The notes: generated by a model from the sequence alone, not told the origin. DNA of 64,000 nucleotides from Escherichia coli (GCF_044324875.1 NZ_CP172185.1); one strand, 5' to 3'. Shown: positions 45,368-47,959, counted from the stretch's first letter. Numbers and translations are program-made.

Positions 45368-47959
45368 ATGCATCAATCTGGTTCTGTTTCTCTTTGTCGT
45401 TCCGCAATATCTGTTCTGGTGGCTACAGCGTTATATTCACCCATAGCATTGGCATCAACAGTTGAGTATGGTGAGACAGTTGATGGTGTTGTCCTGGAAA
45501 AAGATATCCAGCTGGTTTATGGGACCGCCAATAATACGAAAATCAATCCTGGCGGAGAACAGCATATTAAAGAATTTGGTATAAGTAGTAATACTGAAAT
45601 TAACGGCGGGTATCAGTACATTGAAATGAATGGCACCGCAGAATACTCAGTATTAAATGATGGTTATCAAATTGTTCAAATGGGTGGCGCGGCAAACCAG
45701 ACTACCCTCAATAATGGTGTGCTACAGGTTTATGGCGCAGCGAATGATACTACCATTAAAGGCGGGCGCTTAATTATTGAAAAAGATGGGATTACCGTCT
45801 TTGCCGCTATCGAAAAGGGAGGATTACTGGAGGTTAAAGAGGGGGGATTAGCATTTGCGGTAGATCAGAAAGCCGGCGGTGCGATTAAAACAACCACCCG
45901 GGCCATGGAGGTATTCGGAACAAACCGTCTCGGTCAGTTCGATATCAAGGATGGTATTGCTAATAATATGCTGTTGGAAAACGGCGGAAGTTTGCGAGTT
46001 GAAGAAAATGACTTCGCTTATAATACCACTGTGGATAGTGGCGGCTTACTGGAGGTTATGGATGGCGGGACTGCAACTGGCGTTGATAAAAAAGCAGGCG
46101 GAAAATTAATTGTCTCAACGAATGCGCTGGAAGTGAGTGGTACAAACAGTAAAGGCCAATTTAGTATAAAAGATGGTGTGTCAAAAAATTATGAACTGGA
46201 TGATGGTTCCGGGCTCATTGTTATGGAGGACACGCAGGCCATTGATACTATCCTTGATGAGCATGCCACTATGCAATCGCTGGGAAAGGATACTGGTACG
46301 AGAGTGCAGGCAAATGCGGTGTATGATCTCGGTCGATCAGATCAGAATGGAAGTATCACGTATTCCTCTAAAGCCATCTCTGAAAATATGGTTATCAACA
46401 ATGGCCGCGCTAATGTCTGGGCTGGCACAATGGTTAACGTTTCAGTCAGAGGGAATGATGGCATTCTTGAGGTCATGAAGCCGCAAATAAATTATGCACC
46501 CGCTATGTTGGTGGGTAAGGTAGTGGTTTCTGAGGGCGCTTCTTTTAGAACGCATGGTGCCGTGGATACCAGCAAAGCGGATGTTTCGCTCGAAAATAGC
46601 GCATGGACCATCATTGCCGATATCACTACGACGAACCAAAACACTCGCCTCAACTTAGCCAACCTTGCGATGTCTGGCGCAAATGTGATTATGATGGCTG
46701 AGCCAGTGACTCGTTCATCTGTGACGGCAAGTGCGGAAAATTTCATTACGTTGACCACCAATACCCTGTCGGGAAACGGCAATTTTTATATGCGTACCGA
46801 TATGGCTAATCATCAGAGCGATCAGCTCAACGTCACCGGTCAGGCAACAGGTGATTTCAAAATATTCGTGACGGACACCGGTGCCAGCCCGGCAGCAGGA
46901 GATAGCCTTACACTGGTAACAACGGGCGGCGGTGATGCTGCATTTACGTTGGGCAATGCCGGAGGCGTTGTTGATATCGGTACGTATGAATATACCTTGC
47001 TGGATAATGGCAACCATAGCTGGAGCCTCGCAGAGAATCGCGCGCAAATTACCCCTTCAACCACTGATGTGCTGAACATGGCAGCAGCACAACCGCTGGT
47101 ATTTGATGCAGAACTGGACACCGTGCGTGAGCGTCTTGGTAGCGTAAGAGGCGTTAGTTACGATACGGCGATGTGGAGTTCGGCAATTAACACCCGCAAC
47201 AACGTGACCACTGATGCGGGAGCTGGCTTTGAGCAAACATTGACGGGCCTGACGCTCGGTATCGATAGCCGTTTCTCCCGTGAAGAAAGCAGCACAATTC
47301 GCGGCTTGTTCTTTGGTTACTCTCATTCTGATATTGGTTTTGATCGCGGCGGCAAAGGCAATGTCGATAGCTACACCCTGGGGGCTTATGCCGGTTGGGA
47401 GCATCAGAACGGTGCCTATGTTGATGGAGTGGTGAAAGTTGACCGTTTTGCCAACACCATCCATGGCAAGATGAGTAATGGGGTAACAGCGTTTGGCGAT
47501 TACAATAGTAACGGCGCGGGTGCTCATGTCGAGAGCGGGTTCCGTTGGGTTGACGGATTGTGGAGTGTTAGACCCTATCTCGCCTTTACCGGCTTTACCA
47601 CAGATGGTCAGGACTACACGTTATCAAACGGCATGCGCGCGGATGTGGGAAATACCCGCATATTACGCGCTGAAGCAGGAACGGCGGTAAGCTATCACAT
47701 GGACCTGCAAAACGGTACGACGCTGGAACCCTGGCTGAAAGCCGCCGTGCGTCAGGAATACGCCGATTCTAACCAGGTGAAAGTTAATGACGATGGCAAA
47801 TTTAATAATGATGTGGCTGGAACCAGTGGCGTTTATCAGGCTGGGATAAGGTCATCGTTTACCCCGACGTTAAGCGGTCATTTGTCTGTCAGCTATGGCA
47901 ATGGCGCAGGGGTAGAATCGCCGTGGAATACTCAGGCGGGTGTGGTCTGGACGTTCTGA
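45368..47959 (+). CDS. yejO: Autotransporter (type Va secretion) adhesin-like protein YejO, intact
   Basis: Uninterrupted 863-aa ORF; repetitive G/N/T-rich passenger typical of beta-helix; C-terminal beta-barrel ending …QAGVVWTF (aromatic terminus). Confidence 0.85.
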   Translation: MHQSGSVSLCRSAISVLVATALYSPIALASTVEYGETVDGVVLEKDIQLVYGTANNTKINPGGEQHIKEFGISSNTEINGGYQYIEMNGTAEYSVLNDGYQIVQMGGAANQTTLNNGVLQVYGAANDTTIKGGRLIIEKDGITVFAAIEKGGLLEVKEGGLAFAVDQKAGGAIKTTTRAMEVFGTNRLGQFDIKDGIANNMLLENGGSLRVEENDFAYNTTVDSGGLLEVMDGGTATGVDKKAGGKLIVSTNALEVSGTNSKGQFSIKDGVSKNYELDDGSGLIVMEDTQAIDTILDEHATMQSLGKDTGTRVQANAVYDLGRSDQNGSITYSSKAISENMVINNGRANVWAGTMVNVSVRGNDGILEVMKPQINYAPAMLVGKVVVSEGASFRTHGAVDTSKADVSLENSAWTIIADITTTNQNTRLNLANLAMSGANVIMMAEPVTRSSVTASAENFITLTTNTLSGNGNFYMRTDMANHQSDQLNVTGQATGDFKIFVTDTGASPAAGDSLTLVTTGGGDAAFTLGNAGGVVDIGTYEYTLLDNGNHSWSLAENRAQITPSTTDVLNMAAAQPLVFDAELDTVRERLGSVRGVSYDTAMWSSAINTRNNVTTDAGAGFEQTLTGLTLGIDSRFSREESSTIRGLFFGYSHSDIGFDRGGKGNVDSYTLGAYAGWEHQNGAYVDGVVKVDRFANTIHGKMSNGVTAFGDYNSNGAGAHVESGFRWVDGLWSVRPYLAFTGFTTDGQDYTLSNGMRADVGNTRILRAEAGTAVSYHMDLQNGTTLEPWLKAAVRQEYADSNQVKVNDDGKFNNDVAGTSGVYQAGIRSSFTPTLSGHLSVSYGNGAGVESPWNTQAGVVWTF

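Follow-up and report, generated by a model that had tools for sequence, protein, structure and literature searches.

An intact yejO autotransporter gene in an Escherichia coli chromosome, the common state of a locus interrupted by IS5 in K-12

Introduction

The closest described relatives of the Escherichia coli protein YejO are autotransporters that resemble it over all or part of its length. Ag43 (PDB 7koh, 7ko9 and 4kh3) has, like YejO, a β-helix passenger of AIDA-type repeats with the same mature N-terminal start, and it is the best match to YejO both in sequence (3.8e-37, to 7koh) and in fold (4.4e-21, the first Foldseek match in the PDB), although identity in the structural alignment is only about 25%. 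The two proteins also differ in their signal peptides, that of Ag43 being extended (52 residues) whereas that predicted for YejO is short and conventional. The glycosylated adhesins AIDA-I and TibA share with YejO both AIDA domain matches and TIGR04415 repeats, with TibA matching the passenger at 1.8e-27, but the YejO passenger is much shorter. Three Bordetella proteins, BrkA, Vag8 and pertactin, carry the same combination of a pertactin-type junction and a 12-strand barrel; this likeness is limited to the secretion module, and the functional passenger surfaces are unrelated. A literature search found no paper characterising the function of YejO, and the label "adhesin" is therefore drawn from homology.

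The name of yejO, its architecture, its lesion in K-12 and its distribution among pathotypes are already on record. In K-12 the gene is described as a pseudogene inactivated by IS5 near the start codon (PMC11005336), and yejO is among the eleven IS5 sites of strain BW25113 (PMC11677980). A passage of PMC3426408 that cites Wells et al. (2010) places YejO in all commensal and diarrhoeagenic genomes and has it truncated in all UPEC, while yejO is reported missing from ST131 and present in ST38, ST405 and ST648 (PMC5654935). Here we describe the yejO allele found in a 64,000-nucleotide stretch of an E. coli genome (GCF_044324875.1, NZ_CP172185.1), the whole of which is referred to as the window.

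The yejO locus of the window

The ORF listing of the window contains a single unbroken plus-strand frame at 45368-47959, which comprises 863 codons and a stop, opens with ATG, has no in-frame start upstream of that ATG and encodes a protein ending in …QAGVVWTF. In RefSeq, the yejO coding sequence of strain TUM1886 has the same start, stop and 863 codons, and the TUM1886 protein (WP_001590372.1) differs from that of the window at six residues. An identical protein is already present in NCBI under the name "autotransporter YejO [Escherichia coli]" (e.g. HAW2563751.1), where it is found on 13 contigs, and the 90%-identity cluster to which the window protein belongs has 16,859 member sequences. 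The frame is not a chance one, because its matches to Pfam families and to TIGR01414 are strong. Full-length near-identity to annotated YejO and the gene order narP - yejO - tRNA-Pro - yejM, which is the usual position of yejO in E. coli, both place the gene in the YejO orthologue group. Its locus and length agree with those of E. coli YejO (b2190; e.g. WP_001590372.1 and WP_000554210.1), from which no substantive difference was seen. Annotated yejO loci are 97.5-99.2% identical to the window at the DNA level; the closest matches among complete E. coli genomes, from a megablast search with window positions 45000-48250, are 99.2% identical. The features of the locus, together with others in the window, are collected in Table 1.

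Table 1. Positions of yejO, its predicted parts, its neighbours and other features in the window
Feature	Position	Strand	Basis or remark
yejO coding sequence	45368..47959	+	ORF list; RefSeq TUM1886 coordinates; exact NCBI protein
Predicted Sec signal peptide, aa 1-29	45368..45454	+	hydrophobicity; A-L-A; Ag43 alignment; AlphaFold
TTAT, K-12 IS5 site, uninterrupted in window	45431..45434	+	alignment with K-12
β-helix passenger, Ag43/AIDA-like, aa 30-430	45455..46657	+	PF16168; Ag43 7koh, TibA; AlphaFold; Foldseek
Two tandem ~75-aa modules, aa 148-222 and 223-297	45809..46258	+	51% identity; AIDA, TIGR04415
Pertactin-type junction (autochaperone), aa 431-555	46658..47032	+	PF03212; PDB 1dab, Vag8 7akv
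Linker α-helix, aa 563-592, predicted in barrel pore	47054..47143	+	AlphaFold, pLDDT above 90
12-strand translocator β-barrel, aa 600-863, ends W-T-F	47165..47956	+	PF03797; TIGR01414; AlphaFold; Foldseek
narP-yejO intergenic region, presumed yejO regulatory region, 319 bp	45049..45367	+	AT-rich; SD-like AGGA
Hairpin, 13 pairs, with A-run and T-run flanks	48021..48051	.	between yejO stop and tRNA-Pro 3' end
ccmH	43314-44366	+	upstream neighbour
narP	44401-45048/45078	-	upstream neighbour; end from RefSeq annotation of colinear locus
tRNA-Pro (GGG)	48061-48137	-	conserved downstream neighbour
yejM	48212-49972	-	downstream neighbour
DUF1175 ORF	1281-1931	+	in yfaS-like cluster
1539-aa bacterial α2-macroglobulin	1850-6469	+	MG2, A2M bait region, A2M and bMG10 domains
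DUF2300/SpoIID-like protein	6470-8119	+	in yfaS-like cluster
DUF2135 ORF	8124-8900	+	in yfaS-like cluster
naRNA4 (REP-like), two or three copies	19240-19430		Rfam gathering-level
MicF, beside ompC	23091-23184	-	Rfam gathering-level
Ribosomal protein L25 leader	51853-51878	-	Rfam gathering-level

Alignment shows the window to be colinear with intact yejO loci and free of IS sequence at the gene, and no integrated element is present at the tRNA-Pro. In K-12 (NZ_CP011343.2), by contrast, yejO is annotated as two pseudogene pieces flanking an IS5 transposase gene. The insertion there is a 1195-bp IS5, the two flanks of which share 4 bp (TTAT), and it lies after ORF nucleotide 67, in codons 22-23 and within the signal peptide, at the equivalent of window positions 45431-45434. 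Removal of IS5 and one copy of TTAT from the K-12 sequence restores an unbroken frame of 863 aa, which differs from that of the window by 22 substitutions. The original prediction, made from the DNA alone, had proposed a continuous 863-aa YejO autotransporter ending in VVWTF with no IS sequence, and had named the K-12 copy as one disrupted by IS5; each of these points is borne out by the coordinates, the synteny, the database proteins and the alignment to K-12, and the K-12 lesion additionally by PMC11005336. The identity and the intactness of the window allele are thereby established, and with high confidence the ORF can be classed as an intact chromosomal yejO encoding a classical monomeric (type Va) autotransporter of the AIDA-I/Ag43 kind.

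Domain architecture of YejO

Residues 1-29 have the makings of a Sec signal peptide, which reads MHQSGSVSLCR / SAISVLVATALY / SPIALA, with cleavage predicted before STVEYG. The n-region takes its positive charge from R11, residues 12-22 form a hydrophobic core (Kyte-Doolittle mean 2.15), and the residues at -3 to -1 ahead of S30 are A-L-A. AlphaFold models residues 1-28 with low confidence and places a helix at 13-21. Aligned with the crystal construct of mature Ag43, residue 30 falls at the beginning of that construct, and many homologues of 30-45% identity have a canonical signal peptide directly before a TV..G.TV…Q.VYGTA.NT.I motif that in YejO starts at residue 31. A 75%-identical orthologue keeps the same N-terminal layout with I-S-A as its cleavage site. 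The assignment is heuristic and draws on composition, homologue alignment and AlphaFold, and within those terms a Sec signal peptide is plausible. Given these features and the homologue alignments, the objection that export would be impossible for want of an N-terminal signal peptide does not apply. A lipoprotein signal at Cys10 was considered and ruled out by the lipobox rule, since the V-S-L before the cysteine is not lipobox-like and no hydrophobic stretch precedes it.

The remainder of the protein resolves into the parts of an autotransporter. Pfam assigns two stretches to AIDA (PF16168, 3.3e-51), residues 431-555 to Pertactin (PF03212, 5.3e-45) and residues 602-841 to the autotransporter β-domain (PF03797, 7.2e-46), and NCBIfam TIGR01414 matches at 2.5e-111. 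Among PDB sequences, the C-terminal half is matched by Vag8 (7akv, 4.3e-36), BrkA (8.5e-19) and pertactin (1dab). Modelling with AlphaFold2 from an alignment of 80 family representatives gave a mean pLDDT of 86, with short regular β-strands over residues 30-561, then a helix spanning 563-592, and finally twelve long strands between 600 and 862. Foldseek aligns the model with the BrkA β-domain at a TM of 0.89-0.90 normalised to the target (rmsd 2.7-4.0 Å), with pre-cleavage EspP at a TM of 0.82, and with pertactin at 1.3e-12. The C-terminal β-signal, …GVVWTF, has aromatic residues at -1 and -3. Pfam, NCBIfam, AlphaFold and Foldseek agree on these domains, which establishes the domain architecture, and the sequence and model features looked for in a type Va autotransporter are all present: a signal peptide (heuristically assigned), a β-helix passenger, a junction, a linker helix with a 12-strand barrel, and an aromatic C-terminus.

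The passenger had been described in the original prediction as repetitive and rich in G, N and T. The composition of residues 30-555 (12.5% G, 9.9% T, 8.9% A, 8.4% N) bears out the second part. The first part holds at the protein level, where an explicit comparison of residues 148-222 with 223-297 gives 51% identity and the two modules match two AIDA-domain hits and TIGR04415 repeats, but it does not extend to the DNA, as a scan of the yejO ORF found no direct repeats of at least 20 nt; a self-BLAST of the protein returned the identity alignment alone. Three matches to TIGR04415, a heptosylation-target strand-loop-strand repeat of the kind targeted by Aah/TibC-type heptosyltransferases, were found in YejO despite there being no glycosyltransferase gene adjoining yejO; its neighbours are narP and the tRNA-Pro, with no heptosyltransferase gene among them. 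Membership of the named families was also examined and rejected: YejO scores 134 bits against the Ag43/Cah model (NF033177) and 72.8 bits against the AIDA-I model (NF033176), each with a curated cut-off of 1200, so that it is related to Ag43/Cah without being a member.

Distribution and state of yejO across E. coli

A megablast search with window positions 45000-48250 against 5,426 complete E. coli genomes located yejO in 5,425 of them, always on the chromosome apart from one 94-bp plasmid match, and annotated as autotransporter YejO between narP and tRNA-Pro/yejM. A single place covering at least 80% of the query was found in 4284 of the 5426 genomes (79%); those with lower coverage carry short remnants, and the two that were inspected are annotated pseudogenes. 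An evenly spaced sample of 40 rows from the megablast ranking, which gives rough proportions and not a census, held about 25 uninterrupted full-length loci, four with an IS inside yejO (three K-12 derivatives with IS5 and strain EC931 with IS1), two with an in-frame shortened 789-aa variant, and eight remnants covering 45-50% of the query, among them the two inspected pseudogenes. Remnants amount to roughly a fifth of complete genomes. Spot checks found intact, non-pseudogene 863-aa yejO in O157:H7 and in one mouse isolate. These counts agree with the published distribution (PMC3426408, PMC5654935). An intact yejO is therefore not special to the window strain; it is the common state in E. coli and presumably the ancestral one, with K-12 as the exception, and the original prediction, correct in its reading, describes an ordinary condition of a known gene. 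Since yejO has been degraded repeatedly in other lineages (PMC3426408, PMC5654935), at least some niches do not require it.

Several variant loci were also seen. Strain 118UI has IS4 between yejO and the tRNA-Pro, and FDAARGOS_1290 has an intact yejO preceded by IS5, which is inserted in the AT-rich narP-yejO spacer and could alter expression of the gene. A large set of predicted YejO-like proteins of 771 aa, many of them from contigs of ~9.9 kb, starts at the equivalent of V19 and stops at …TTLEP (aa 788), and so lacks the beginning of the signal peptide as well as the final barrel strands; the set probably represents a further pseudogene form that recurs in some lineage.

Expression and function of YejO

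By analogy with what is established for the type Va family, the 29-residue signal peptide would direct Sec export, and BAM would insert the C-terminal 12-strand barrel (aa 600-863) into the outer membrane with the linker helix (aa 563-592) seated in its pore. The pertactin-type junction (aa 431-555) would then seed folding of the ~400-residue β-helix passenger at the cell surface, where the passenger would probably mediate adhesion or cell-cell aggregation. The window strain may in this way express a functional YejO adhesin. Selection on the protein is shown by the sequences: when the window allele is compared with six other intact alleles by the Nei-Gojobori method, dN/dS is 0.12-0.19 over all of yejO and 0.08-0.25 over the barrel by itself, values that mark a coding gene on which purifying selection acts.

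Whether an intact gene is also an expressed one bears on how far this strain departs from K-12. Silencing in laboratory culture is common among E. coli genes for autotransporter adhesins, and yejO could likewise be cryptic, silent in most conditions through, for example, nucleoid-protein silencing of an AT-rich promoter region; the chance of this is somewhat short of even, as is that of its corollary, that in practice the strain would not differ from K-12 unless the gene were de-repressed. GC content is 35.7% in the narP-yejO spacer and 43.5% in the first third of yejO, against 51.9% for the window. A scan of the plus strand upstream of yejO for the sigma-70 consensus gave no strong match, and hence no promoter is proposed; the SD-like AGGA at 45354-45357 lies 10 nt before the ATG, a rather long spacing. 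In the light of what is known of E. coli surface-adhesin genes, the AT-rich upstream region and the lack of a strong promoter match suggest possible H-NS silencing. Insertions in such intergenic regions can activate silenced operons, and the one strain with IS5 between narP and yejO fits a cryptic gene. In a K-12 RNA-seq compendium yejO is among the least-detected genes (PMC10392735), though the copy there is IS-disrupted. Against silence as the normal state of the gene, a whole-gene dN/dS this low reflects past selection on the protein, which must therefore be made under some natural condition, and the literature search found no direct support for silencing of yejO and no paper testing its control by H-NS. 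An Rfam scan of the whole window found no regulatory RNA near yejO. Downstream, the hairpin between yejO and the tRNA-Pro is probably a bidirectional intrinsic terminator. A more radical reading is that the ORF looks intact and is recently dead, through an inactivating missense change or a lost promoter. The loss of yejO in many lineages, whether through an IS or a deletion, lends this some plausibility, but no invariant or nearly invariant family position is altered in the window allele, which differs only at the six residues noted above from the TUM1886 allele and encodes a protein found unchanged on 13 independent contigs. Over the 368 bp upstream, comparison with K-12 shows just 3 differences in 435 aligned positions. 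Recent death is accordingly very improbable.

If the passenger does reach the surface, its role might be something other than adhesion to host surfaces, for example resistance to serum or complement of the BrkA and Vag8 type, or self-aggregation alone. The sequence matches to those two Bordetella proteins and the closer likeness of the passenger to Ag43, a self-associating autotransporter, point in this direction. The stretches matched by Vag8 and BrkA (aa 384-860 and 581-863), however, belong to the junction and barrel, which are conserved secretion parts and not the functional surface, and no enzymatic domain was detected by Pfam or NCBIfam, so a non-adhesive role is rather unlikely and adhesion or cell-cell aggregation is still the preferred reading of the passenger. 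Improbable, too, is a reading of YejO as a colonisation factor specific to the gut, the loss of which would be adaptive outside the intestine; it is raised because purifying selection keeps yejO intact in commensal and diarrhoeagenic lineages, whereas elsewhere the gene has been lost independently (by IS5 in K-12, and as remnants in about a fifth of complete genomes, which are reported to include UPEC and ST131). Were it true, intact alleles like that of the window would be the material for a first functional characterisation. Any intact allele, which most E. coli carry, could serve to test the ligand and function of YejO, and the import of the window allele itself goes little beyond its correct annotation.

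Other features of the window

Near the start of the window, positions 1281-8900 on the plus strand contain a cluster of uninterrupted ORFs that looks like the yfaS region. The yfaS gene is a pseudogene in K-12, and its counterpart here may add a further case of a gene whole in this strain and broken in K-12. Over positions 20000-40000 (rcsD, ompC, napA, mqo and yojI) the best identity among the 5,426 complete E. coli genomes is only 98.9%, which indicates that the lineage of the window is not closely represented among complete RefSeq genomes, despite the exact YejO protein in NCBI. The matches to naRNA4, MicF and the L25 leader are all expected in this region of the E. coli chromosome.
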